From: Candidatus Eiseniibacteriota bacterium
GTDB lineage: Bacteria; Eisenbacteria; RBG-16-71-46; CAIMUX01; VGJL01
DNA length: 64,000 bases
Assembly (NCBI GenBank): GCA_041946735.1
Contig: JBHGAY010000009.1
Coordinates: 76,425 to 140,424 of the forward strand
Direction of reading: 5' to 3'
This document shows, one piece after another, positions 21,975 through 40,389 of the stretch. A model generated the notes under the pieces. It worked only from the letters and a program-made list of their open reading frames with translations, made no database searches and was not told the DNA's origin. Each line of letters begins with the position of its first letter. Within the stretch, counting starts at the first letter, position 1. The position numbers and the translations under genes are program-made.

Positions 21975-23402
21975 TCAGACCACGAGGGGATCGCCCGGGC
22001 CGGGACTGACGGCGCCGGTGTCCTCCGGCCCCGCATCGCCGCCTCCGTTCGCGTCGAGATCCGACTCGTCCCCCGCGAGCGCGACCCCCTCGGCGAAGAG
22101 AGTGTGCGAGCTCGCTCGCGCGACGCGGACGACGCGGAAGTCCCCCTCGATCGCTCCGTCGGCAGGGAGAAGCACTGCCTTGCCATCGTCCGCCTTCCCC
22201 TTGATCGCGGCGCGGCTCCTTCGCGACGGCCCCTCCACGCGGACGAGCACCTCGCGGCCGATCCATCGCGCATACCGCTCCGCGGAGATCTCCTCCTGCA
22301 GGGCGATCATCCGCGTCAGCCGGTCCGCCTTGGACGCCTCGGGGACATCGTCCGCCTGGTGGCGGTACGCGAAGGTCCCGGGACGCGGGGAATAGCGGAA
22401 CAGGAACGCCCCGTCGAAGCGCACCGCGAGCAGCAGCGAAAGGGTCTCTTCGAACTCCTCCTCCGTTTCGCTCGGGAATCCCGCGATGAGGTCGGTCGTG
22501 ATCGCCGCGTCGGGAAGGACCGAGCGGATTCGGTCCACGACTTCGAGGAACTGCCGCCGCGTGTGTCCGCGCTTCATCGCGGCCAGGATTCGATCGCTCC
22601 CGCTCTGCACCGGCAGATGGATCTGCTTGCAGAGGTTCTCGTGCCGGGCCATCACCTCGAACACCTCGGGCGTGAAATCGGCCGGGTGCGGCGAGGTGTA
22701 GCGGATCCGCCGCAGCCCGGGGATTCGCGCGACGCGATCGAGGAGCTTCGCGAAGTCGGTCCCGCCGTCTCGATAGGAGTTGACCGTCTGGCCGAGCAGG
22801 GTGACGGCATTCGCGCCCGCCGAGACCGCTTCCTCGACCTGACGGAGGATCTCCTCGGCCGGCAGGCTTTTCTCACGCCCGCGCACGAGCGGCACGACGC
22901 AGAAGGTGCAGAAGCGGTCGCATCCACGCATGATCGGGATCCAGGCATGCCGGGCGCCGGGCCGGACGGCCGGCAGCCCCTCGTAGCGCTCCTCCTTGTC
23001 GAGAGCGAGGTCGACGAGCGGTCCTTCGCTGGAGGAGCGCGCGAGGTCGTCGGCGAGGCGGCGATAGGAGTCGGGACCGATCAGCAGGTCGACCGCCGGG
23101 AGTCTACGGAGCAGATCCTTGCCGAGATGCTTCGCCATGCATCCCGCCACCCCGATCCGCAGATCCGGCCTGTAGCGCTTGAGGAGCGCGAGCTGCCGCA
23201 CACGCGACGCGACGCGTTCCTCCGCTCTCTCGCGGACCGCGCACGTATTCAAGAGGACGACGTCCGCGAGCGCGGCCTCCCCGCTCACCTCCCAGCCGGC
23301 ATCGTCCAGCATGCGGAGCATCATCTCCGAGTCCGCCTCGTTCATCTGGCATCCGTACGTCTCGAGATAGATGCGGGGGCGCGGGGCGGGCGAAGGGGTC
23401 AT
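21975..23402 (-). CDS. miaB: tRNA-i6A37 methylthiotransferase
   Basis: ETYGCQMNEADS, NTCAVRE, GCDRFCTFC, TSPHP, YSPRPGT, C-terminal TRAM domain. Confidence 0.95.
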   Translation of the reverse strand: MTPSPAPRPRIYLETYGCQMNEADSEMMLRMLDDAGWEVSGEAALADVVLLNTCAVRERAEERVASRVRQLALLKRYRPDLRIGVAGCMAKHLGKDLLRRLPAVDLLIGPDSYRRLADDLARSSSEGPLVDLALDKEERYEGLPAVRPGARHAWIPIMRGCDRFCTFCVVPLVRGREKSLPAEEILRQVEEAVSAGANAVTLLGQTVNSYRDGGTDFAKLLDRVARIPGLRRIRYTSPHPADFTPEVFEVMARHENLCKQIHLPVQSGSDRILAAMKRGHTRRQFLEVVDRIRSVLPDAAITTDLIAGFPSETEEEFEETLSLLLAVRFDGAFLFRYSPRPGTFAYRHQADDVPEASKADRLTRMIALQEEISAERYARWIGREVLVRVEGPSRRSRAAIKGKADDGKAVLLPADGAIEGDFRVVRVARASSHTLFAEGVALAGDESDLDANGGGDAGPEDTGAVSPGPGDPLVV

Positions 23403-26141: not shown

Positions 26142-26356
26142 CTTCTATCTTTCGCTGATGCAACCCGATGCGTTGAGTCGGGGTATTTTGCTTGCAACCG
26201 TGCATCGCCTCCCCTACCGTCCCGCCTTACCCGATACACGGTCCCGCTCACGAGAGCGCCTTCGGGAGCCCCACGCGAGAGGCGAGCCGGACGTACGGTG
26301 CCGATGTTTCATACTGCAGGAACCAACGCCGCAAGGAGCCGCACAGGAGGAAGGGC

Positions 26357-29290
26357 ATGAGTCGAAGGGAGTTCGATGAGGAGGGCCCCGGCCGGGTCTC
26401 CGGCACTTCCCAGAACGAAGCCCAGGACGAGGCGCTCGGGCGCCGGGCGGGACTGAAGTTCCGCCGGTATTTCACGAAAGCAGGGATCGACCCTTTCGAT
26501 ACGGTCAGCTGGGACATGCGGACCGCCGTGATCACCAATGAGTCCGGGGATGTGATCTTCGAGCAGACCGGTGTCGAGTTCCCGCGCACCTGGTCGGTGA
26601 TCGCGACGAACGTCGTAGCCTCGAAGTACTTCCATGGCGCCGTCGGATCCCCGGAGCGCGAATCGAGCCTGAAGCAGGTCATCCGTCGCGTGGTGGACAC
26701 GATCGGCCGCTGGGGCCGTGAGCTCGGCTACTTCCATGCGGACGAAGATGCCGATGCGTTCCACGAGGAGCTGAAGCATCTGCTCCTCTACCAGATGGCC
26801 GCCTTCAACAGCCCGGTCTGGTTCAACGTGGGGATCGAGGAGAGGCCCCAGTGCTCCGCCTGCTTCATCAATTCCGTGCAGGACACGATGGCCTCGATCC
26901 TCGATCTGGCGAAGACCGAGGGGATGCTCTTCAAGTGGGGCTCGGGCAGCGGGACGAACTTCTCCAGCCTGCGGTCGAGCAAGGAGAGGCTCTCCGGCGG
27001 CGGCACCGCCTCGGGTCCCGTCTCCTTCATGAAGGGGTACGACGCGTTCGCGGGCGTGATCAAGAGCGGCGGCAAGACGCGGCGCGCCGCGAAGATGGTG
27101 ATTCTGGACATCGATCACCCCGACGTGCTCGAGTACATCCGCTGCAAGGCGGAGGAAGAGAAGAAGGCGTGGGCCCTCATCGACGCAGGCTACGATGGCT
27201 CTCTGACCGGAACCGCCTACTCCAGCGTCTTCTTCCAGAACTCGAACAACTCCGTCCGCGTGACCGATGATTTCATGCACGCCGTGGAATCCGACGGGAT
27301 CTGGCAGACGAAGGGCATCCTCAGCCACGAGCCGATCGACACCTACAAGGCGCGCGACCTGTTCCGCGAGATGGCGGAGGCGGCCCACATCTGCGGCGAC
27401 CCCGGAATCCAGTTCGACACCACGATCAACACCTGGCACACCTGCCCGGTGACCGGGCGGATCCGGGCGTCGAATCCGTGCAGCGAGTACATGTTCCTCG
27501 ACGACACCGCCTGCAATCTCGCGAGCCTGAACCTCATGCGGTTCCGCACGCCGGGCGGCGATCTGGACGTGGAAGCGTTCTCCCACGCGGTCGCGACGCT
27601 GATCCTCGCGCAGGAGATCCTGGTCGACTGCGCCTCGTATCCCACTCCGCAGATCACGCAGAACAGCTACGACTACCGCCCGCTCGGGCTCGGCTACGCG
27701 AACCTCGGCACGTTCCTGATGGCTCGCGGGCTGCCGTACGACAGCGACGCGGGGCGCCACGTCGCGGCGGCGATCACGGCGTTGATGACCGGCCAGGCAT
27801 ACAAGACGTCCGCGGAGATCGCCTCTGTCACCGGCCCGTTCCGCGGCTTCGCGCCGAACCGTGAGGCGATGCTGGGGGTGATCGCGCGCCATCGCTCGCA
27901 CGTGAGCAAGGTCGATCCCTCGGTCGTTCCCGAGATGCTGCTCAACCGCGCGCGCAAGGCCTGGGACGAAGCGCTGGAGCTCGGCGAGCGCTGGGGATAC
28001 CGCAACTCGCAGGTCACGGTCCTCGCTCCGACCGGGACGATCGCGTTCATGATGGACTGTGACACGACCGGCGTGGAGCCCGACATCGCGCTGATCAAGT
28101 ACAAGAGGCTCGTCGGCGGCGGCGTGCTCAAGATCGTCAACCAGTCGGTGACCGAAGCGCTGGAGTACCTGGGCTACGACGAAGGACAGCGGCGCGAGAT
28201 CCTCGAGTACCTCGACGCGAACGAGACGATCGAGGGAGCGCCGGGACTCTCCGCGGAGCACGTCTCGATCTTCGACTGCGCCTTCAAGCCCCGCAACGGC
28301 GAGCGCTTCATCGGACCGATGGGACACGTCCGGATGATGGCGGCCGTGCAGCCGTTCCTCTCCGGCGCCATCTCCAAGACGGTGAACCTGCCGAACGAGA
28401 CGAGCGTCGAGGAGATCGAACAGGTCTACCTGGAGGCGTGGAAACTCGGACTGAAGGCGATCGCCGTCTATCGCGACGGATGCAAGCGCACCCAGCCGCT
28501 CAGCACCTCCCTGTCCGAGGAACCGCGCAAGGCGGCGACGGGCACGGAGACAGGAGCCGGGACGGGAGAGGAAGTGTCCGCAAGGACGGGCGCCGTCGCG
28601 CCGGGAGCGACGGCGGGCTCGAGCCCGGCGAGCGCGAGCGGTCCGGTGCACCCGGTGCGTCGCCGGCTCCCGGACGAGCGAGCGGCGATCACCCACAAGT
28701 TCTCGATCGGCGGGCACGAGGGATACATCACCGTCGGCCTCTACGAGGACGGCCAGCCGGGCGAGATCTTTCTCGTGATGGCGAAGGAAGGGACCGTCGT
28801 CTCCGGGCTCGTCGATTGCTTCGCGACATCGATCTCGATCGCGCTGCAATACGGGGTGCCGCTCAAGGTCCTGGTCGACAAATTCGTCCATACGCGCTTC
28901 GAGCCCTCCGGAATCACCTCGCATCCGGAGATCCGCTTCGCGAAGTCGATCACCGATTACGTCTTCCGCTGGCTCGCCCTGAAGTTCCTGCCGGATCACG
29001 AGGCGGTTCGCAACGGCAAGACGAACGACTTCGGCGCGGAGATGCATCGCGCCGAGGGAATGACTCCGGCGGCGGCGATGGCGGCGACGTCCACGTCGAC
29101 ATCCACGCCGGCTTCGACCTCCGCCTCGAGCTCCGCGGGCACGCCGCCCGGCGGGGCGGAAGAGCCGCTGGCGATCTACCAGATCGCCGACGACACGCCT
29201 CCCTGCCCCGTCTGCGGATCGCTGATGGTCCGCGCCGGCAGCTGCGCGCGCTGCTTCAACTGCGGAAGCTCGAGCGGCTGCGCCGGCTGA
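26357..29290 (+). CDS. nrdJ: Adenosylcobalamin-dependent (class II) ribonucleotide reductase with C-terminal TSCPD-like domain and Zn ribbon
   Basis: FNSPVWFN, QCSACFI, GGKTRRAAKM, SNPCSEY, APTGT, SGAISKTVN, YRDGCK; C-terminal CPVC..CFNC. RBS AGGAGG. Confidence 0.95.
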   Translation: MSRREFDEEGPGRVSGTSQNEAQDEALGRRAGLKFRRYFTKAGIDPFDTVSWDMRTAVITNESGDVIFEQTGVEFPRTWSVIATNVVASKYFHGAVGSPERESSLKQVIRRVVDTIGRWGRELGYFHADEDADAFHEELKHLLLYQMAAFNSPVWFNVGIEERPQCSACFINSVQDTMASILDLAKTEGMLFKWGSGSGTNFSSLRSSKERLSGGGTASGPVSFMKGYDAFAGVIKSGGKTRRAAKMVILDIDHPDVLEYIRCKAEEEKKAWALIDAGYDGSLTGTAYSSVFFQNSNNSVRVTDDFMHAVESDGIWQTKGILSHEPIDTYKARDLFREMAEAAHICGDPGIQFDTTINTWHTCPVTGRIRASNPCSEYMFLDDTACNLASLNLMRFRTPGGDLDVEAFSHAVATLILAQEILVDCASYPTPQITQNSYDYRPLGLGYANLGTFLMARGLPYDSDAGRHVAAAITALMTGQAYKTSAEIASVTGPFRGFAPNREAMLGVIARHRSHVSKVDPSVVPEMLLNRARKAWDEALELGERWGYRNSQVTVLAPTGTIAFMMDCDTTGVEPDIALIKYKRLVGGGVLKIVNQSVTEALEYLGYDEGQRREILEYLDANETIEGAPGLSAEHVSIFDCAFKPRNGERFIGPMGHVRMMAAVQPFLSGAISKTVNLPNETSVEEIEQVYLEAWKLGLKAIAVYRDGCKRTQPLSTSLSEEPRKAATGTETGAGTGEEVSARTGAVAPGATAGSSPASASGPVHPVRRRLPDERAAITHKFSIGGHEGYITVGLYEDGQPGEIFLVMAKEGTVVSGLVDCFATSISIALQYGVPLKVLVDKFVHTRFEPSGITSHPEIRFAKSITDYVFRWLALKFLPDHEAVRNGKTNDFGAEMHRAEGMTPAAAMAATSTSTSTPASTSASSSAGTPPGGAEEPLAIYQIADDTPPCPVCGSLMVRAGSCARCFNCGSSSGCAG

Positions 29291-29308
29291 TCCCACCGGT
29301 TCCGCTGT

Positions 29309-29342
29309 CGTGCCGGGGATCGCGCAGGCGATCCCCGGCACG
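29309..29342. other. Strong intergenic hairpin between nrdJ and pduO, no U-tract
   Basis: CGTGCCGGGGATCGC-GCAG-GCGATCCCCGGCACG, perfect 15-bp stem. Confidence 0.7.
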
Positions 29343-29361
29343 GCGCTGAGGAGACACCGGG

Positions 29362-29961
29362 ATGAAGATCTACACGAGGACCGGCGACGGCGGTGACACG
29401 GGGATCCTCGGCAGCCAGAGGGTGCCGAAGAGCCACGTCCGGATCGACGCCTACGGCGAAGTCGACGAGCTGAACTCCCTGCTCGGCTGGATGCGAGCCG
29501 GGATGGAGGATCCGGCCGTCTCCTCGCTCGTCGAGTCGATCCAGGGACTGCTCTTCGAGGTGGGGGCCGAACTCGCCCGGCCCCCTTCGCCATCCGGTGT
29601 GGCGCACGGCACACTGCGCGAAGAGGACGTGACCGCGCTCGAACGGGCGATCGATCGGATGGAGTCGAACCTCCCGCCGCTCTCTGCCTTCGTCCTTCCC
29701 GGGGGAAGCGAGGCGGGATGCCGCGCACACCTGGCTCGCACGGTCTGTCGCCGCGCCGAGCGCGCGGTCGTCCGGCTTCTTCTCGAAGAACCGTACGAGA
29801 CGCTCGCCGTCCGCTTCCTGAACCGCCTCTCCGACTTCCTCTTCGTTCTCGCGCGCAAGCTCAACCAGGATGCGGGAGCCACCGAGAAGCCGTGGGTCGC
29901 GCGCAGGCGCGGGGGCGCGCCGGCGTCCGGCTCGGAGTCGTCCCGGCCCAAAAGCGATTGA
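29362..29961 (+). CDS. pduO: ATP:cob(I)alamin adenosyltransferase, PduO type
   Basis: KIYTRTGDGGDT, AYGEVDELNS, ARTVCRRAER, LNRLSDFLF. Confidence 0.96.
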   Translation: MKIYTRTGDGGDTGILGSQRVPKSHVRIDAYGEVDELNSLLGWMRAGMEDPAVSSLVESIQGLLFEVGAELARPPSPSGVAHGTLREEDVTALERAIDRMESNLPPLSAFVLPGGSEAGCRAHLARTVCRRAERAVVRLLLEEPYETLAVRFLNRLSDFLFVLARKLNQDAGATEKPWVARRRGGAPASGSESSRPKSD

Positions 29962-30029
29962 CCTTCCCGCCGCGGGAGAAGAACCTGGGGTGGGTTTCGT
30001 CATGGCGTAGGGACGTGAGGAGGTCCGGG

Positions 30030-30497
30030 ATGGAAACGCTCCATGCGATCGCGAACCGGGACGTCAGCAAGCTCACCCTGCTGGGCGTCCCCGACCGGCC
30101 TGGAATCGCCGCCGAGATCTTCGGCAAGCTCGGCCTTCAGGGTTTCAACATCGAGCTCGTCGTCTCCACGGGGGCGGACGGCGGCCGCGCCGACATCTCG
30201 CTCGCCATCTCGCGGAGCCAGGAGGAAGCGGTCCTGCGCGCGCTCGAGGTGTTGCGCGAAGAGGTCGGCGGGATCTCGATCGCCGTGAACTCCGGCGTCG
30301 CCCTCGTCAGCATCATCGGCCCGCATCTCTCCACCGAGCCGGGCATCGCCGGACGGATGTTCCGCGCGTTGTCGAAGCAGGGGATCAACATCGAGGTGAT
30401 CTCGACCTCGATGTCCTCGGTCACCTGCATGATCGGCGACGAGTGGACCGAGACAGCGCTTCGGGCGCTTCGAGAGGAGTTCGGCCTCACGGCTTGA
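30030..30497 (+). CDS. Stand-alone tandem ACT-domain protein (aspartokinase beta-like)
   Basis: GVPDRPGIAAEIFGKL and VSIIG...PGIAGRMFRALSKQGINIEVISTS; RBS GAGGAGG; no kinase domain upstream. Confidence 0.85.
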   Translation: METLHAIANRDVSKLTLLGVPDRPGIAAEIFGKLGLQGFNIELVVSTGADGGRADISLAISRSQEEAVLRALEVLREEVGGISIAVNSGVALVSIIGPHLSTEPGIAGRMFRALSKQGINIEVISTSMSSVTCMIGDEWTETALRALREEFGLTA

Positions 30498-30568
30498 GGC
30501 GCGGAGCGGCGCGCCCAGCGGCCGCGCCGGGAGCTCGCCGGGGCGCCTTGGCCCTGTGCCGGGGGCTC

Positions 30569-30628
30569 TGCTACGATCCGCTGTTCCGCAATGATCCGTT
30601 CGAACTTCCCCATGGTTCGAACTTCCCC
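30569..30628 (+). promoter_or_regulatory. Extended -10 element followed by a direct-repeat operator candidate
   Basis: TGcTACGAT at 30569-30577; GTTCGAACTTCCCC twice with a 17-nt period (30598, 30615). Confidence 0.45.
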
Positions 30629-30650
30629 GTACCCGACGGCAGGAGGACCG

Positions 30651-32333
<1,683 letters not shown>

Positions 32334-32385: not shown

Positions 32386-33246
32386 ATGGCCGAGGAGATG
32401 GACCGGCGGTCGCGGGCCCTCCCGCTCGACCGGCTCGGAGTTCCACAGGAGCGCTTGCGTGAAGGCCGGTCGCCGGTTCTGCTCGAGCCACGCGACCTGT
32501 TGATTCTGCCGCAGCCGGGCGGCCGCGCCGCCGCGCATGCGAGTGCGAGCGCAGGCGCGAGCGCAGGCGCAGGCGCGGGCGTGGGCGGCGCCGCGACGGA
32601 CCCCGGGCCGGGTCCCTATCCTACGGTCGTCTGCTTCCATGGGATGGCGATGCGCATCGAGCCGATGATTCGCTGGATGTCGGACCTCTTCGACACGCCC
32701 TGGGCATGGCTCTTTCTCGAGGCTCCGTATCCGGTCGAGCGCAAGATCGGAGGCGTCCGCACCATCGGCTACGCCTGGTACGCGTTCGACGGCGACACGC
32801 CGGCGTTTCGCGACAGCCTCCGGAGAAGCGAGGCGCGGGTGTTGAGCCTTCTGCCCGATCGCGCCTCCGCATGGAACCTGGACGTGACGCGGATGGTCGT
32901 GCTCGGCTTCAGCCAGGGGGCCTACTTCGCGGGCAGCGTCGGACTCCGCCATGCCGAGCGGTTCCGGGGCATCGTCTGCGCAGGCGGGCGCATCCGGCCG
33001 GCGTATTCCGGACGCTCCCCGGAAACCGTCCCGAAGCTGCCGATCCTCTTCCTTCACGGGCGCGACGACGCCACGATCCCGATCGAGGACGCAAGGTCGG
33101 CGGCCGAGGAGATGCGAGGGCTGGGCTTTCCTGTCGAGTGGCGGGACGTCGAAGGGCGGCATCGATGGAACCCGGCGATGTCGGAGGCTCTGCGACCTTG
33201 GCTGAGCGAGCGCTTCACCGAGGCAGATCCCCCTGGATCCCGATAA
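32386..33246 (+). CDS. Alpha/beta hydrolase (phospholipase/carboxylesterase family)
   Basis: FHG, GYAWY, GFSQG nucleophile motif, HGRDDATIP, GRH. Confidence 0.85.
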   Translation: MAEEMDRRSRALPLDRLGVPQERLREGRSPVLLEPRDLLILPQPGGRAAAHASASAGASAGAGAGVGGAATDPGPGPYPTVVCFHGMAMRIEPMIRWMSDLFDTPWAWLFLEAPYPVERKIGGVRTIGYAWYAFDGDTPAFRDSLRRSEARVLSLLPDRASAWNLDVTRMVVLGFSQGAYFAGSVGLRHAERFRGIVCAGGRIRPAYSGRSPETVPKLPILFLHGRDDATIPIEDARSAAEEMRGLGFPVEWRDVEGRHRWNPAMSEALRPWLSERFTEADPPGSR

Positions 33247-33249
33247 TTC

Positions 33250-33453
33250 CCAAGAAGAAACCCAGGGGCTCTTCGAATCTCCTCTCGGATCTTCGTCCCG
33301 GATGACCGTCTCCGGGAACCCCTGGGTTCCGGTTACCTGTCGAGATTCCGCAGACGACCTGGCTCAAGCCATACGACTGCGGCCAGGCCGCCTAGCGTTC
33401 AGGCACCTCACGGGTCTTGGATTTCATAGATTGGACCACCTCCTTTCTCGTGT
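33250..33453 (-). ncRNA. Candidate structured small RNA or micropeptide mRNA carrying an extended anti-16S-3'-end segment
   Basis: Own promoter, 5' AGAAAGGAGGUGGUCCAAUC, several stems whose G-U pairs work only on the minus strand, and a terminal stem followed by a U-rich tail. Confidence 0.6.
33392..33427 (-). CDS. Micro-ORF, 11 aa (MKSKTREVPER)
   Basis: ATG 10 nt after AAAGGAGGT; TAG at 33392-33394. Confidence 0.45.
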   Translation of the reverse strand: MKSKTREVPER

Positions 33454-33459
33454 ACCGCC

Positions 33460-33488
33460 AACATAGGATGAGACAACGAGCGCTGCAA
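33460..33488 (-). promoter_or_regulatory. sigma70-like promoter for the small RNA
   Basis: TTGCAG-17 bp-TATGTT; predicted start near 33453. Confidence 0.6.
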
Positions 33489-33516
33489 GAAGGATGTCGC
33501 TGGAGGGCGAACGGGC

Positions 33517-34026
33517 ATGCAGGAGGAAGAAACGTCGCCGTGCCGGCGAGAATCGCGAGCAGGACCGAAGCGGAGACGCCCGGCCGAGGCAGGCCCGACC
33601 GGGAGCGCCGGGACAGTGATCGTCTACGACGCATCCTGTCCGATCTGCCGAGCGACGGTCCGTGCGCTGCGTGGCCTCGACGCCGACCGCCTCTTCGAGT
33701 ACGCCGACGCCTCCGATCGAGACCGGCTTCGCCGCGACGTCCCACAGGTCGATCCCGGGCAAGCGATGGAGAAGATCCATGTCGTCCTTCCCGGCGGAGG
33801 CGTGCGCGCGGGATTCAGCGCCTTGCTGGCGATCGTTTCGGCGCTCCCCGGCTGCCGTCCGCTCGCTGTGGCCCTCGGCCTGCCGGGGATCCGCTGGATT
33901 GGAGAGAAGGCATACGCCGTGTTCGCGCGTCACAGACCGCGACGAGGAGGAGGACGAGAAGGAGGACGAGGAGATACGCATGCCGTGCGGGAAGGCGAGC
34001 CGCGCCCCGGTGGACGGGAAGGGTAG
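33517..34026 (+). CDS. DCC1-like thiol-disulfide oxidoreductase family (DUF393)
   Basis: VIVYDASCPICR and GEKAYAVFARHR. The true start may be further downstream. Confidence 0.8.
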   Translation: MQEEETSPCRRESRAGPKRRRPAEAGPTGSAGTVIVYDASCPICRATVRALRGLDADRLFEYADASDRDRLRRDVPQVDPGQAMEKIHVVLPGGGVRAGFSALLAIVSALPGCRPLAVALGLPGIRWIGEKAYAVFARHRPRRGGGREGGRGDTHAVREGEPRPGGREG

Positions 34027-34372: not shown

Positions 34373-36940
34373 TCACGCGCATCCCCGTGATGCGTCCCCA
34401 CCCGCACCGTCCGAAGGCGAAGCAGGGGGCTTCGCGCTCTCCGGGTCCGCGATCCTCTCTCCTTCCGGCTCGCGTTCCTCCGCGCTCGCCGAATCTCCGG
34501 GACCGGGGAAAAGGCCGAGCCGCTTCATCTTTCCGATCAGCGTCGTTCGGCTCAGTCCGCCCAGGGAGCGGGCGGCGCGCGTGCGGTTCCACTCGTTCTC
34601 CTCGAGCGCCTTGACGATCAGCCGGCGCTCGAGGTTCTCGAGGAACGGCTCGAGGCCTCCTGCGGCGCTCACGTCGTAGGGATCGAAAGCCTCTTCGGCA
34701 TCGATCGTCGCCGGCAGCCGTTCGAGGTCGATGCAGTCCGCCTCGATCCGGTCCCGTCCGAGAGCGAGGGTGAGAGCGAGCGCCTTCTCGACGACGAAAC
34801 GCAGCTCGCGCACGTTGCCCGGCCAGGCGTGCGCGAGAAGCCGGTCGAGCGCTTCGGGAGTCGGGGAGGGGCGGGGATCGTCCGGCCCGGCGAAGAGACG
34901 CACGAAGTGGTGCACGAGGAGTGGCACGTCCCCCATCCGGTCGCGTAGCGGGGGCAGGTCGATGCGAAGGCCGGAAAGGCGGTAGTAGAGGTCGCGCCGG
35001 AACTCGCCTCGGCGGATCTGTCCCTGCAAGTCGGCGTTCGTCGCCGCCAGCACGCGCGCGTGGATCTTGCGCGTCCGCGTCTCGCCGACGCGGCGCACCT
35101 CCCCCAGCTCCAGAACGCGCAGCAGCTTCACCTGCGCGCGCGGCGTCATCTCCCCGATCTCGTCGAGGAGCAGCGTGCCCCCGTCCGCCGCCTCGAAGAG
35201 GCCGACCTTGTCGGCGATCGCGCCGGTGAACGCGCCGCGGACGTGCCCGAACAGCTCGCTCTCCTGCAGCTCGGCGGGCAACGCCCCGCAATTGACGGCG
35301 ACGAACGGGCCGCGGCTCGCAGCCGCCCGGTGGAGGGCGCGAGCGAGAACCTCCTTGCCGGTTCCGCTCTCGCCGAGGATCAGCACGGGGATCGCCGTGC
35401 GTGCGAGCGACTCGATCGGCTCGAGCGCCCCGAGGATCCGCGGGTCGGCGGTGACGAACCCCAGCTGGGACACGCGCCGCGCGCGCGGCACGCGAGGTGG
35501 TCGCGCCGCAGCCGCGGCGGGCGCGGCGGCGGCCGCGCGCTCGCATTCCCGAAGTCCTTCGAGGGCGACGTCGCAGCGCCACGCGAAGCGGCTCTCCCCG
35601 AGCCGATGGAACAGCAGGCGGGCCTCGAGCAGAGACTCTTTCGCCCCCTCCCGCAGGTTCGGCTCCCAGCGGCGCACGAGGACCGCTTCGGCGCGCTCCA
35701 GCAAAGTCCCGGCCAGCTCTCGCGAGGCTTGGACGCTGCGGTGGAGATCTTCGGCCCATTGGAACTCCGCCCAGGCGCGTTCCTCCTCCCCATCCTGGAG
35801 AGCAAGACGGGCGGCGAGCCGCCGCAGGCCCGCCAGGGCGAATCGATAGGCGGCGCCGGCGAGCCGCGCTCCATCCACGCCGGCGGGCAGGACGTCGGAG
35901 AGGACCGCACGCGCCTCGGCCGGCATGCGGCGCTCGAGCAGGACCTCGGCGAGGAGGCTTGCCGCCTGCATCCCCGTCTCTTCGTCCCACGATCCCTTCT
36001 CGGCCATCGCCGCCCCACCGCCGCACACGGGGACGTCCGCCTGGACAGAGGCGGCGCTCGCTTCGCGGCAGGCGGCGCTCGCCTCGCAGCAGGCGGGGGC
36101 CGCTTCTCGGCAGACGGCGATCGTTTCGCGGCACGCGGACTCCGCCGCCTCCAACCGTCCGGAGAGAGACAGCAGGCGCGCGGCGGCGAGACGCGCGCGG
36201 GCGCGCAGCTCCGGGATCCTCTCGAGCGCCGGCTCGCCTTGCAGGCGGTCGAGCATGCGGCGCGCGGCGGGCAAGTCGCGGGCGTCAAGATAGACGTTCG
36301 CCGCGGTGAGACGCGCGCGCCCGCGCAGAGCCCAGTGGACCGGGGTCGACCTCGGTCCTCCCCCGCCTCGGAGCAGCCGCAAGGCGCGCGCCAGGTGGCG
36401 TACCGCGCGCGGCGGCTCTCCTGCCCCGGAGGCCGCCAGCGCCTCGCCGATCCGCAGCAGCGCCTCCTCCTCGCCGCCGCGGCGAGCGAGCGGCACGAGC
36501 GCCTCGAATGCCTCCCCCGCCGCCGTCCAGCAGCCGGCGGCGAGGAGCGAGCGGGCGAGGGCGAGCCCGGTCACGCGGAGCGAGGGTCGGTCCTCGTGCG
36601 CGAGCGCGAGCGCGTGCAGGCGGACGAGCTGGGAGCGGACGTCGCCGGCGCCATGCGGCGCCGCGGCGGTCGCCACCCGTTGCTCGAGCTCATCGGCCTG
36701 CCGCTCCAGATCGAGATCGGCGGCCGGCGACGCCCGCTCGACGGCGTCGGACGTTGCGACATCCTCGAAGAGCGAACCGCAAAGGATCGAAGCCGCGGCG
36801 AGTGTCGTCGCGTCGCGCTGGGGGACGAGCTCCGTGGGCCCCTCGAATGGCTCGGGCTGCGGAGCTGCGACAGGTTTCAGAGACACAAGAGACACGAGCG
36901 AAGCGAGCGAAACGGGGGACCTCTCCTGGATCACGGCCAC
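34373..36940 (-). CDS. sigma54-dependent activator: TPR-like N-terminus + AAA+ + Fis-type HTH
   Basis: [58 protein letters not shown]. Confidence 0.93.
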
Positions 36941-37299
36941 CTCTCGGAAGTGCGCCCCTCGGCCGGGCCGGCCATCGAGGCGCGGTTACCAGCTTGCGAC
37001 ATCAGGACTTCGGGAGGCTGGTGCCGGGGACTGCCGGAACGATTCGTAGCTCCGGCCGTCCCCGAGCGGGCATCCGGGGGGCGAATGCCTTCTACTGCTA
37101 TAGCAAGACTCGCACCGGGAGCGGTGAGTGGCCGGCCGGCCAGCCAGCCAGCGGCTGCGAGGCTGCGGAGGGGAGAGCAAGCGCGGGCGTCCGAGTGCGG
37201 GATGGACTCGCTCCGGTGCGGCGGATACCGTCGCTCTGTCGCGAACGGCGCGCCGCCTCACCCTTCGCGGAGAGTGCGGCAGGAAGGCGAGACCGATCG

Positions 37300-40200
37300 A
37301 TGCGTCTGCCCCAAACCCTTCTTCTCCTGCTCGCGTGGACGGCCGCCGCAGCGTCGGTGGCCGTGCCGCCCGCGCCCGCGCAGGGCACGTTCGTCCTGAT
37401 GAACGAGCGCAACCATCCCGAGCTGCGGTGGATGGAGCTGCGAACGGCGCACTTCCGGATCTTCTATCACGACCCGCTCGAGAGCTGGGCTCGCGAGGCG
37501 GTCTCGATCCTCGAGCGCTACGACGCGCCACTACGCGAGCGCCTCGGCGTCGAGCCCGGCGGCCCGCCGACCCGCGTGTATCTGTCCGACCAGGATCAGA
37601 TCGCCAACGGCGCAGCGGTGGGCGACTACTTCTACGTCTGGATCCCCTCCCATCCGATCAGCCGGTGGTACGCCGGGGACAGGCCGTGGCTCGAGGAGGT
37701 GCTGATCCACGAGTACACCCACGTCCTGATCACGCGAGCCTCGTGGACGTGGATCGGGAACCTGGCATTCCTGGTCGGCGCCTACCCTCCACGTTGGGTG
37801 CACGAGGGAGTCGCGCAATGGACGGCGGAACGTTGGTCGGTGACGCGCGGGGATCAGACGCTGGGCGCCGCGGTGATGGACGGCTCGATCGAGCGCACCC
37901 CGCCCGGCGTGCCCGGAGAAGGCGCCCTCCTCTACTCGCGCGGCCACGCACGTATCCGATGGATCGCCGCGATGGCGGGCGATTCGACGATCGCCCGCCT
38001 GCTCGAACCGCACGGTTCGCTCGGCCTCTATTCGTATCCGGCGGCCGAGCGCCGCGCTCTGGGGACGAAGCGGGCCGGGCGATCGTCCGAGGACTTCCGC
38101 CGCGACATGATCGCCTTCTACGGCGCCCGCTACGAGGCCGGAGAGGATCCTGATTCGCTCGGCAGGCTCGCCGACGCTCCGCTCGCCTATCCGCAGCGGT
38201 TCGTGGAGCTCGGCTCGGACGTCGGTTCGGACGTCGGCTCGGAGGCCGACTCGACGGCCGACTCGACGGGCGACTCGACGGCGAGCGGCCCGGCCCCCGG
38301 ATTCTGGACAGGACAGGCGCGCCGGGGCGCGCCCGAGTCTTCGCTCTTCCTCGCCGGCAAGGACGGCGCGCGCCGCGTCGTGGCAGGATCCGTGTCCGGC
38401 TCTCCGGTGCCGCTTCCGGGCGGTGGCGCGCTCCTGCCGCGCCTCCATCGGGCCGATCACGGAGCGATCGTCGAGGATCTCGGCCTCTGGGAACCGCGCG
38501 AAGGCTTCCGCTTCCTCACCCACGGCGAACGGATCGGCGAAGCGGCCTGGCTGTCCGGGACCGGGGCAGCGGCCGACTCCCCGCTCGTCGTGCTGTTCGA
38601 TCGACCGCTCGAGACGGTGCTCGCGCGCGGGCGCCTCGCTCCCGATCGCCGCGCGATCGACGTCCGTCCCATCCTCTCGTGGCCGCGCGGGCACAACCTG
38701 CACGGACTCGCCTCCTCTCCGGACGGTTCGCGCCTTGCCGTCTCGATCGCCGAGCCCGACGGCAGCCGCGGCCTCTGGGGCATCCGGCTACGGCCCGATG
38801 GGGCCGGCCGGCTCCCGCTCCTACGTCACCGCGTCGACGTCGCCGAGGAGCGGTCGGCTTCGTGGGTCGATGAAGAGACGCTCGCCTGGACGTCCTACGA
38901 AGGCGGGATCGCCAACGTCCGGACCGCCCGATGGCCCGAGGGCGCCGACAGCTTGACCGGCGCGCGACTCCGCACGAAGACCGGGATCGGCGCGGATCTG
39001 GCAGGCGTGCGCGACGATTCGCTCCTCGTCGTGGATCGATCGACGCGCCTCCGCTTCCCGGTTCGGGCGGCGGCGGCGGCGACCCGGCGCGGCACGGGCG
39101 GCGACCTTCCCCGCGATCCGTATCCTTTCCCGAGCGGGCGGGCGGTCGCGCCTCTTCCCGCGGAGAGCGTCTCGGTCGCCGCGACGGCCGAAGGACCGTT
39201 CCCGTATCGCGCCCTCCGAGAGGTCCGGCCGTGGTTCCTCCTGCCGCTCCTCGGGCCTCAGGCGGGGTCCCTGGGCTTCGGGGGGCTGGCGATCGCGAGC
39301 GAGCCGCTTCTTCGCCATTCGATCGGCGCCTACGTCTACGGCAGTCCCGAGTCGTATCGCGATCCGGATCGAGCCGCCGCCTACCTCACGGGGCGCTTCG
39401 GGCCGTGGCTGGCCGCGTACCACCACTCGACGATCCTCCCGCGCCGCGTGCTTCGTGGAGGGATCCTCTGGGAGCGGCGGGAGCAGACCGGGATCGGCGT
39501 GCTCGCGCCGCTTCAGTCCTCGGCCGATCCGAACCGGGGCGGATGGATCGCGCTCGCCGTCGACGCCGACAGCCGCTGGCCTCGCTTCGACGCGGCCGCC
39601 CTGCGCACCCCGCTCGGCGCGCCGCGCGCCTGGTCAGGCGTGCGAGCGTCGATCGAGGCCGGGACCGTCCACCAGCCGCCGCCCGCGCGCGGCAACGTCG
39701 CCACGGGCATCTCCGTTCGCGTCGATGGCAGCCTGGCCGCGCTCGAGCATCAGGAGCGGTTCCTGCGCGCCGCCGCGCGCTTCTTCCACGCGGCGCCGCT
39801 GCCCTTCGCGCCATCGCGCCTGTATCTGGAGGGTTCCTTCAACGGAGTGTCGGGGCCGGGACGATCGGGCGGGCTCCCGCCGCAGGAGTATCTCGGCCTC
39901 GACCGCTACCCGAGCTACGATGCCGGCGTCCCCGGCCTCGACCTGGACGGGACGGTCTTCCTTCGCGGCTGGCCGCGCGAGCGAGCGGCGCGCGCGGTGC
40001 TCTACGGCGATCTCGAGATCCGGATGCCCGTGCTCCCTGACTTCGGCATCCGCGGCCCCGGCTTCGCGATCGGCGCCGGCACCCTCGCTCCCTTCCTCGA
40101 GGCGGCGCATCCCTGGGGCGGATATTCCGCTCCTTTGTCCGAGGAGCGCACACGCGTGGCGGCCGGGTTCGAGGCGCGGCTCGGCGCTCGTCTCGGCCCG

Positions 40201-40389
40201 CTGCCTCTCGTCGCGAGCGCGGCGTGGGGACGGCCGCTCGGCCGCGAACACCCCGATGGCTTCGTGACGTGGAGGGTGAGCGCCGGTCCTCCGGTGCGCG
40301 CTCCCCTTTCGCCGGCGCGCCTCGCGCGCGCCCTGCTCGGCGGGCGGCTGATCGAGGAACTGCCGCGCGACGAATCGCTGCCGCGCTGA
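37300..40389 (+). CDS. Large exported/outer-membrane protein: gluzincin-like HExxH domain, propeller-like middle, beta-rich C-terminus
   Basis: Signal peptide; WMELRTAHFRIFY, IHEYTH...WVHEGVAQW; SPDGSRLAVS; alternating aromatic beta strands at the end. Confidence 0.7.
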   Translation: MRLPQTLLLLLAWTAAAASVAVPPAPAQGTFVLMNERNHPELRWMELRTAHFRIFYHDPLESWAREAVSILERYDAPLRERLGVEPGGPPTRVYLSDQDQIANGAAVGDYFYVWIPSHPISRWYAGDRPWLEEVLIHEYTHVLITRASWTWIGNLAFLVGAYPPRWVHEGVAQWTAERWSVTRGDQTLGAAVMDGSIERTPPGVPGEGALLYSRGHARIRWIAAMAGDSTIARLLEPHGSLGLYSYPAAERRALGTKRAGRSSEDFRRDMIAFYGARYEAGEDPDSLGRLADAPLAYPQRFVELGSDVGSDVGSEADSTADSTGDSTASGPAPGFWTGQARRGAPESSLFLAGKDGARRVVAGSVSGSPVPLPGGGALLPRLHRADHGAIVEDLGLWEPREGFRFLTHGERIGEAAWLSGTGAAADSPLVVLFDRPLETVLARGRLAPDRRAIDVRPILSWPRGHNLHGLASSPDGSRLAVSIAEPDGSRGLWGIRLRPDGAGRLPLLRHRVDVAEERSASWVDEETLAWTSYEGGIANVRTARWPEGADSLTGARLRTKTGIGADLAGVRDDSLLVVDRSTRLRFPVRAAAAATRRGTGGDLPRDPYPFPSGRAVAPLPAESVSVAATAEGPFPYRALREVRPWFLLPLLGPQAGSLGFGGLAIASEPLLRHSIGAYVYGSPESYRDPDRAAAYLTGRFGPWLAAYHHSTILPRRVLRGGILWERREQTGIGVLAPLQSSADPNRGGWIALAVDADSRWPRFDAAALRTPLGAPRAWSGVRASIEAGTVHQPPPARGNVATGISVRVDGSLAALEHQERFLRAAARFFHAAPLPFAPSRLYLEGSFNGVSGPGRSGGLPPQEYLGLDRYPSYDAGVPGLDLDGTVFLRGWPRERAARAVLYGDLEIRMPVLPDFGIRGPGFAIGAGTLAPFLEAAHPWGGYSAPLSEERTRVAAGFEARLGARLGPLPLVASAAWGRPLGREHPDGFVTWRVSAGPPVRAPLSPARLARALLGGRLIEELPRDESLPR

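Follow-up and report, generated by a model that had tools for sequence, protein, structure and literature searches.

Which RNA is encoded on the minus strand between the two plus-strand genes that flank positions 33250-33391 of the window (the whole 64-kb stretch of DNA that was analysed), and what might it do? A preliminary description had singled out a multi-stem fold in this region. Using Rfam, we found that the stems noted there are the 3' two-thirds of an RNA of about 200 nt (33453-33252, minus strand) belonging to the Ms_IGR-5 family (RF02471). The whole RNA (33252..33453, minus) matched model positions 1-184 with a score of 54.5 bits against a gathering threshold of 45, using the full model. 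It was the sole gathering-level match in the 64-kb window and is present as a single copy in the genome. The bounds first given omit the 5' 60 bases, which carry function, and the invariant GUC loop of the junction's first hairpin had been left unremarked. No ribozyme or riboswitch family was found in Rfam for the minus-strand RNA at E values up to 1. Matches to mir-2041, mir-1247 and sR28 scored far under the cut-off and were rejected.

Family assignment and transcription unit

We compared the folding of the two strands over 33250-33391. The minus strand folded at -73.2 kcal/mol (z -4.46, with none of 200 shuffles equal), versus -57.3 kcal/mol for the plus strand (z -2.22, with 4 of 200 shuffles as good). 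The pairs were also found to covary in homologues, and the four G-U pairs become A-C on the plus strand, which favours the minus strand. The selection on the minus-strand RNA proposed in the preliminary description was therefore upheld, as was its view that the fold goes beyond a simple terminator, with 140 further bases and the internal loops conserved besides the stem and tail. A plain intrinsic terminator was rejected as a full account, since its stem and tail are present, yet much more than these is conserved.

Upstream of the RNA we identified a -35-like hexamer, TTGCAG (33483..33488, minus), and, 17 nt past it, a -10-like hexamer, TATGTT (33460..33465, minus), which would place the transcription start at A33453. 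The TTG...TAnnnT spacing was present in 124 of 132 loci. At this locus a consensus scanner called neither a promoter nor a terminator. In mycobacterial homologues, a start has been mapped to the 5' end of the model (PMC4974804), and the M. smegmatis IGR-5 transcript is reported to start on A (bioRxiv 10.1101/2021.12.14.472595). At the other end lies a U-rich tail (33252..33256, minus); 27 of the 31 folded copies from outside the actinobacterial set had at least 4 T among the following 8 nt, and the last long helix, P3, probably doubles as the terminator stem. The RNA is thus intergenic, with conserved promoter-like hexamers and a conserved U tail, as a stand-alone Ms_IGR-5 unit should be. Judged by its sequence and that of its homologues, the minus-strand RNA is a stand-alone transcription unit of a catalogued family, with a fold under selection.

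The RNA is flanked by a convergent gene for a phospholipase/carboxylesterase-family hydrolase (32386..33246, plus; PF02230), which ends 6 nt beyond the RNA, and by a divergent gene for a DCC1-like thiol-disulfide oxidoreductase (33517..34026, plus; PF04134). Neither is a conserved neighbour among the loci of relatives. Based on rough ORF calls at 40 loci, the downstream ORF was convergent in 27 of the 38 cases called, and no Pfam family recurred in more than a few of 74 flanking ORFs (39 loci). These varied, mostly convergent neighbours argue against a leader. In one relative (L009:1792-2520), the RNA is directly preceded by a divergent smpB gene and a tRNA match, and L004 also has a tRNA nearby. 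Elsewhere in the window we observed a sigma-54-dependent activator whose long N-terminal region has no Pfam match (34373-36940, minus), a 1044-aa ORF without a Pfam match at E 0.001 (37255-40389, plus), and a cobalamin-related run (26192-32333, plus) that includes a cobalamin adenosyltransferase, a two-ACT-domain protein, methylmalonyl-CoA mutase and, by eye, a ribonucleotide-reductase-like ORF.

The host genome contains 8 Omp85 matches and sigma-54, and a Corynebacterium control has neither, which suggests that the host is not an actinobacterium. The actinobacterial host for which Ms_IGR-5 is named is thus not what we found here, and we read this as an extension of its range, not as a failure at the sequence level. 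The RNA is a member of a known family outside its named range, and the new part is the revised architecture described below.

Architecture of the RNA and its 11-codon frame

All stems named in the preliminary description are present in the sequence, as are the GAGA loop, the 2x2 G-A loop and the UUCUU tail. The 11-bp stem pairs 33392-33382 with 33363-33353 and has 2 G-U pairs as described, but it begins on the last base (G) of the stop codon and not after it. The 15-bp outer stem is a possible pairing, and in the 12 close relatives 98.3% of its cells are paired, but the minimum-free-energy (MFE) and centroid structures prefer 13 outer base pairs, with a 7-bp inner hairpin and an unpaired AAGA strand. 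Pair probabilities were 0.51 and 0.82 for this 13-bp/7-bp arrangement versus 0.40 and 0.18 for the earlier register, and most folds of the more distantly related homologues have the former, with AAGA unpaired. In the 12 aligned copies, 17 of 31 pairs of the earlier register were changed on both sides (7.3 in shuffles), with 95.9% paired; the revised 49-pair model was 94.2% paired with 20 pairs showing two-sided changes (8.1 in shuffles and at most 5 in slid controls). The earlier register scores as well as the revised model, so the 12 close relatives do not decide between them.

In the revised model, the P1 helix (33407-33400 with 33339-33331; span 33331..33407, minus) encloses P2 and an A-rich internal-loop strand (33348-33340). 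P2 (33349..33397, minus) consists of 3 bp (33397-33395 with 33351-33349), a bulge formed by the U(A) of the stop codon, the 11-bp stem and a variable tip. Two-sided changes were found in 6 of the 14 P2 pairs (12 aligned copies). The outer extension of P1 had weaker support on a tree (4 of 14 and 7 of 15 changes shared), and the P1 core had been used for parsing the copies. The length of the P2 tip varies by more than 100 nt among copies; in L011, L017, L058 and L104, it has grown to 150-240 nt with the core unchanged. Another copy (L113) seems, by eye, to be broken just past the stop by unrelated transposase-like sequence.

The three-way junction (33257..33330, minus) is formed by P3 (33330-33318 with 33269-33257), P4 (33317-33296), P5 (33295-33274) and the unpaired AAGA (33273-33270). 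Two-sided changes were seen in 9 of the 12 pairs of P3 and in 3 of the 7 pairs of P4 (12 aligned copies). The junction had been noted before and proved to be conserved, as it was found in 30 of 34 homologues from outside the actinobacterial set (relatives, metagenome copies without taxonomy and two named non-actinobacteria); three of the exceptions had no usable fold and one had no third arm. In the actinobacterial set, the junction region formed two branches in 63 of 85 copies. In most copies of the wider set, 0-1 base separated the first helices and the A-rich strand measured 4-6 nt. A GNRA loop and tandem G-A pairs, as pointed out earlier, are both present here, but the third-arm loop was GNRA in only 14 of 30 copies outside the actinobacterial set (UNCG in 3 of 30) and in 5 of 66 within it, and the tandem G-A pairs were exact in only 2 of 30. 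Going by these comparisons, the two features are a lineage detail and not conserved tertiary motifs, and the third-arm loop appears as a stable cap and not as a conserved contact.

The 5' region contains an extended Shine-Dalgarno (SD) element (33432..33449, minus) complementary to the whole single-stranded tail of 16S rRNA. With the 16S ends of two genomes of the same family (the own assembly does not contain that end), it formed 14-17 bp at -25 to -31 kcal/mol, a range that depends on the position of the mature 16S end, and cofolding gave 16 bp. The 14-mer pattern of the element is unique in the genome. It is followed by an 11-codon frame, MKSKTREVPER (33392..33427, minus), with its stop UAG at 33394-33392. 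We analyzed this frame in two sets of loci; neither start nor stop was part of any search pattern. In a first set of 132 loci, the stop was found seven codons past the Thr codon (UAG 119, UGA 7, UAA 6), and no locus had an earlier in-frame stop, versus 69 and 77 loci in the other two frames. In a later set of 161 loci, 4 without the 5' motif were dropped and 132 were distinct; all 132 had the stop at one structural position, and an in-frame start was present in 131 of 132, versus 3 and 2 in the other frames. The frame is 11-16 codons long and changes by whole codons, and its linker is 64% A+U versus 30% in P2. Three copies (L152, L161 and L167), probably from one event, have one extra P1 base, a shifted start, a different peptide and the same stop. 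In L156:191-262, there is no ATG, GTG or TTG at the normal spacing, and candidate starts are ATT codons in frame and an ATG further away.

Within the frame lies a second SD-like hexamer, GAGGUG (33404..33409, minus), 9 nt ahead of the stop in 129 and 10 nt in 3 of the 132 loci. The hexamer was fixed by the search patterns, and it was also invariant in 12 copies found with Rfam and 5 found with a model. Its P1 partner drifts, with one pair broken in 8 of 12 copies, and a fixed 5' strand with a drifting partner hints at a second constraint, for example pairing with rRNA. GAGGUG need not pair with rRNA, however, because it is also P0 and P1 sequence. Several other readings of the region were rejected. 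Read-through or recoding of the stop did not fit, since the next in-frame stop lies anywhere from 4 to more than 370 codons on. A 117-aa ORF sharing the stop (33392-33745) overlaps the DCC1-like gene, and its frame is not kept in relatives. A hairpin pairing the GUCC next to the SD element with the GAC is often present in MFE folds; its flanking pairs showed no covariation (p 1.0 and 0.09), and an A breaks it in 21 of 132 loci. One further position of this hairpin gave p 0.004, and it may be a minor state.

Two further pairings join the frame to the rest of the RNA. P0 pairs CACG (33449..33452, minus) with CGUG in the region of codon 6 (33409..33412, minus; pairing 33412-33409), so that the ribosome-binding site and the start codon lie within a closed loop, 32-47 nt long among copies. 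In 40 sequences chosen for spread, 98.7% of P0 cells were paired, with 22 two-sided changes versus 7.5 in shuffles; one pair was A-U in 28 and G-C in 11, and the next was G-C in 16 and A-U in 10. The variable pair was Watson-Crick in 118 of 132 loci, and copies with a single possible register had 88 of 91 Watson-Crick and 3 G-U pairs. On the tree, which comprised 119 sequences and was built from other parts of the RNA, 8 of 10 and 10 of 14 changes were shared with the partner. P0 had a probability near 0 in the pseudoknot-free ensemble and a model enforcing it lay 8.7 kcal/mol above the MFE, so that it would need tertiary or protein support.

The pseudoknot pairs GACC (33413..33416, minus), beginning at +12 from the start codon, with the P4 loop GGUC (33304..33307, minus), where GUC was invariant in 12 of 12 copies. 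In general form, it is GAC(N) with (N)GUC of the P4 loop, and its G was never nearer the start than +12 (131 of 131). The GAC:GUC core cannot be counted as evidence because it was used as an anchor. The fourth pair held in 72 of 107 distinct copies (14 of the 132 loci, incomplete or mis-parsed, having been dropped) versus 43.5 when shuffled. All four Watson-Crick types occurred (U-A 26, G-C 26, C-G 7, A-U 6, plus U-G 7), and 17 of 24 changes at this base on the tree coincided with the partner, versus 8-10 for four control columns. No pseudoknot covariation was seen among the 12 close relatives alone, where the fourth pair held in 6 of 12.

We compared this architecture with that of the family in Rfam. 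The locus shares with Ms_IGR-5 the same 5' element, GAC, GUGAGGUG, the terminal helix and the GUC loop, and both are stand-alone with one copy per genome. The frame differs in length (11 codons here versus mostly 12 in the family). In the Rfam consensus, the 3' helix and hairpin agree with the locus, and the first helix would have non-standard pairs at 3 of 6 positions here. Rfam, which types the family as an sRNA, pairs the 5' region otherwise, without P0, P1, the pseudoknot or the third arm. Covariation backs pairings other than those of the Rfam consensus structure.

Distribution and divergent copies

The Rfam model matched 12 of 41 related genomes, with 10 above the cut-off. An exact pattern was found in 17 of 201 genomes of a sample of the phylum and a model of the 5' part in 17 of 35 genomes of the order, and neither was found in the rest of its sample. 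A looser 5' pattern gave no match in any of the five previously negative relatives searched with it. Scanning genome contigs by pattern gave at least 120 stretches; among the matches listed, 78 of the 80 with titles were actinobacterial, and the other two carried the labels Gemmatimonadota and Polarisedimenticolia. The Polarisedimenticolia match comes from an unpublished genome (G203), the one source for an acidobacterial copy, and this genome contributes one row to each of the frame, P0, pseudoknot, tree, junction and codon-position counts. Metagenomes gave 25 further copies, and viral contigs gave no exact match.

The 5'-only model detected five copies outside the search patterns, all with the stop 9 nt past GAGGUG. 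One of them has every part. The other four, from another family (L181-L184; genomes G030, G020, G018 and G026), have a 14-codon frame and P0-like and P1-like pairings, and a plain hairpin replaces the three-way junction; they fall under Rfam's detection. Four copies without the junction suggest that the junction serves as scaffold and terminator and that the 5' module is the essence of the RNA. Upstream of these four copies, the sequence is unlike the sigma-70-type promoter of the others. Weak model matches at window positions 22233-22276, in G003:C137 and in G244 were rejected, as they lie inside genes or lack the parts.

A related design may exist in Caulobacter. The consensus of the sRNA CC2171 (RF01867) opens with the same long complement of the 16S tail, followed by GUG. 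The RNA scored only 16.5 bits against a cut-off of 75 with that model, which had no match in this genome, and the fold differs past the first 25 bases. CC2171 is therefore at most a sister design, and it may be another unrecognised micro-mRNA (CC2171 is treated in 10.1101/2022.01.24.477521 and PMC11701678).

Possible ribosome engagement and function

The conserved parts can be arranged into a mechanism, which we give about an even chance of being right: the RNA would be a translation-gated switch onto which a ribosome loads, opening the fold as it moves until it is held at the stop, with the RNA reporting the state of translation. Conservation supports the first step, in which the RNA is its own transcription unit and folds into a compact core. 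In this core, P0 fixes the 5' end at codon 6, the GAC next to it pairs with the P4 loop, which the three-way junction holds out, and the remainder of the frame and its stop lie buried in P1 and P2. An A/U-rich loop of about 32 nt would display the maximal SD and the start codon, where a ribosome would initiate, consistent with this conservation and with ribosome cover in a homologue. A ribosome begins to unwind mRNA at about +12, and the core begins no nearer to the start codon than +12, so that the loop could accommodate an initiating ribosome while the core stays closed. Because the 5' strands of the pseudoknot, P0, P1 and the P2 base are all codons, elongation must open these elements, and would melt them in turn. 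At the stop, the unmasked GAGGUG, 6 nt ahead of the P-site codon, could re-pair with the 16S tail, so that the ribosome would linger. In the weakest step, the peptide would be a by-product, and the output would be the state of the RNA (closed or opened by a ribosome) and its lifetime, which might tell a partner how many working ribosomes are available or buffer that supply. More doubtful, though conceivable, is the broader proposal that Ms_IGR-5 typifies a class of lasso-shaped micro-mRNAs spanning several phyla, with a pseudoknotted core, a loop sized for the 30S neck, a maximal SD, a knot opened within 11-16 codons and a second-SD clamp at a structurally encoded stop. Such a class would act as a sensor or regulator of translation state, the ribosome-side counterpart of 6S/Ms1.

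Elements of this design are known from other systems. In leader-peptide attenuators, translation of a short frame remodels the RNA; at STAB-SD 5' stabilisers and the internal SD of prfB, SD pairing holds a ribosome or shields the 5' end; and tmRNA is a pseudoknotted RNA with a short frame. Unlike these systems, the RNA here has no controlled downstream gene, no conserved peptide, no conserved frame past the stop and no tRNA-like domain, and it matched none of their families in Rfam.

The IGR-5 RNA was reportedly first described by Li et al. in 2013. Ms_IGR-5 RNA has been found to be expressed in two streptomycetes (PMC8079986, PMC8780764). A look through listed sequencing runs gave no RNA run with the stretch found here. 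The RNA has since been re-detected (PMC10454040), and in M. smegmatis it is listed among NAD-capped RNAs and called uncharacterized (bioRxiv 10.1101/2021.12.14.472595). Whether Streptomyces scr4389 is Ms_IGR-5 was a guess that was not confirmed. For the M. abscessus homologue, ncMab10731, ribosome reads have been reported, and the ncRNA sheet gives 70.3 RPKM in RNA-seq and 3736.6 RPKM in ribosome profiling (PMC4974804). By our own division, the ratio is 53; both the ribosome value and the ratio are the highest of the 36 ncRNA rows (next F6, 12.5), but several tRNAs exceed this ratio in the same table, so the ratio alone is no proof of translation (PMC4974804). The homologue is the sole ncRNA in the list of 287 genes that erythromycin changed (+2.67 log2) and one of four ncRNAs that changed with kanamycin (+1.14 log2). 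In the same source it is absent from the hypoxia and sputum change lists, and its flanking genes are likewise unlisted as changed (PMC4974804). A frame, the P0 or pseudoknot pairings, or a function for Ms_IGR-5 were not found in the literature searched, outside which most subscription journals lie.

We weighed four other explanations. A cis-acting role, as a leader or attenuator or as a bidirectional terminator serving the hydrolase gene next to it, would suit the leader-peptide-like layout and the U-tailed stem abutting the end of the convergent gene. It is largely refuted by context and we consider it most improbable: no gene follows on the strand of the RNA here, the neighbours of relatives differ and are mostly convergent, there is no conserved read-through length, and the G-U pairs favour the minus strand. 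The leader-peptide attenuator was rejected on the same grounds, there being no conserved co-oriented downstream gene (27 of 38 convergent, with varying families). That the peptide is the product, acting for example in the exit tunnel at termination while the structure controls its synthesis, is an explanation we find improbable. A strong initiation signal and a recurring T-x-E-V-small residue motif speak for it, as does the observation that the two most variable positions in the Thr and Thr+1 codons are third positions. Those third positions, however, covary with RNA partners, and GAG GTG has no synonymous change in the 17 copies found without that pattern. Moreover, there is no constraint on the N-terminal half, a different frame is read in three copies, and another family reads DMVEV or GLVEV at the same place.

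The two remaining explanations concern the ribosome itself. The RNA might bind free or immature 30S subunits through the 16S 3' tail, in maturation, quality control or protection, with the frame as a release device. In favour of this, the complement spans the whole tail up to helix 45, and ordinary initiation uses less of it. Yet the RNA was found in 17 of 35 genomes of the order and not in many near-complete relatives, unlike core biogenesis factors, and the neighbours give no link to biogenesis genes, making this role very unlikely. Somewhat better placed, although still unlikely, is a bulk ribosome decoy, in which the RNA, wrapped like a collar around the subunit's neck, would trap 30S or 70S particles in a complex that is a dead end or very slow to resolve, for storage under stress. 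The maximal 16S-tail complement fits this, as does a loop of 32-47 nt, which is about the stretch of mRNA that a ribosome holds. The very high ribosome cover in M. abscessus and the rise with two ribosome-targeting drugs fit as well (PMC4974804). A dead-end trap, however, requires no stop codon at a fixed place, and RNA-seq shows little of the homologue (70 RPKM versus 79,735 for tmRNA), which is also unlisted under hypoxia (PMC4974804).

The locus itself adds one more member to a family that is present and expressed in streptomycetes and mycobacteria and that has no assigned function in the literature searched. The combination of a structure backed by covariation, a conserved frame with a seemingly dispensable peptide and a response to ribosome-targeting drugs makes directly testable mutations available for M. 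smegmatis or Streptomyces. If the reading as a translation-gated switch or as a clamp at the stop is true, the family would represent a new RNA-based way for bacteria to sense or manage their ribosomes.
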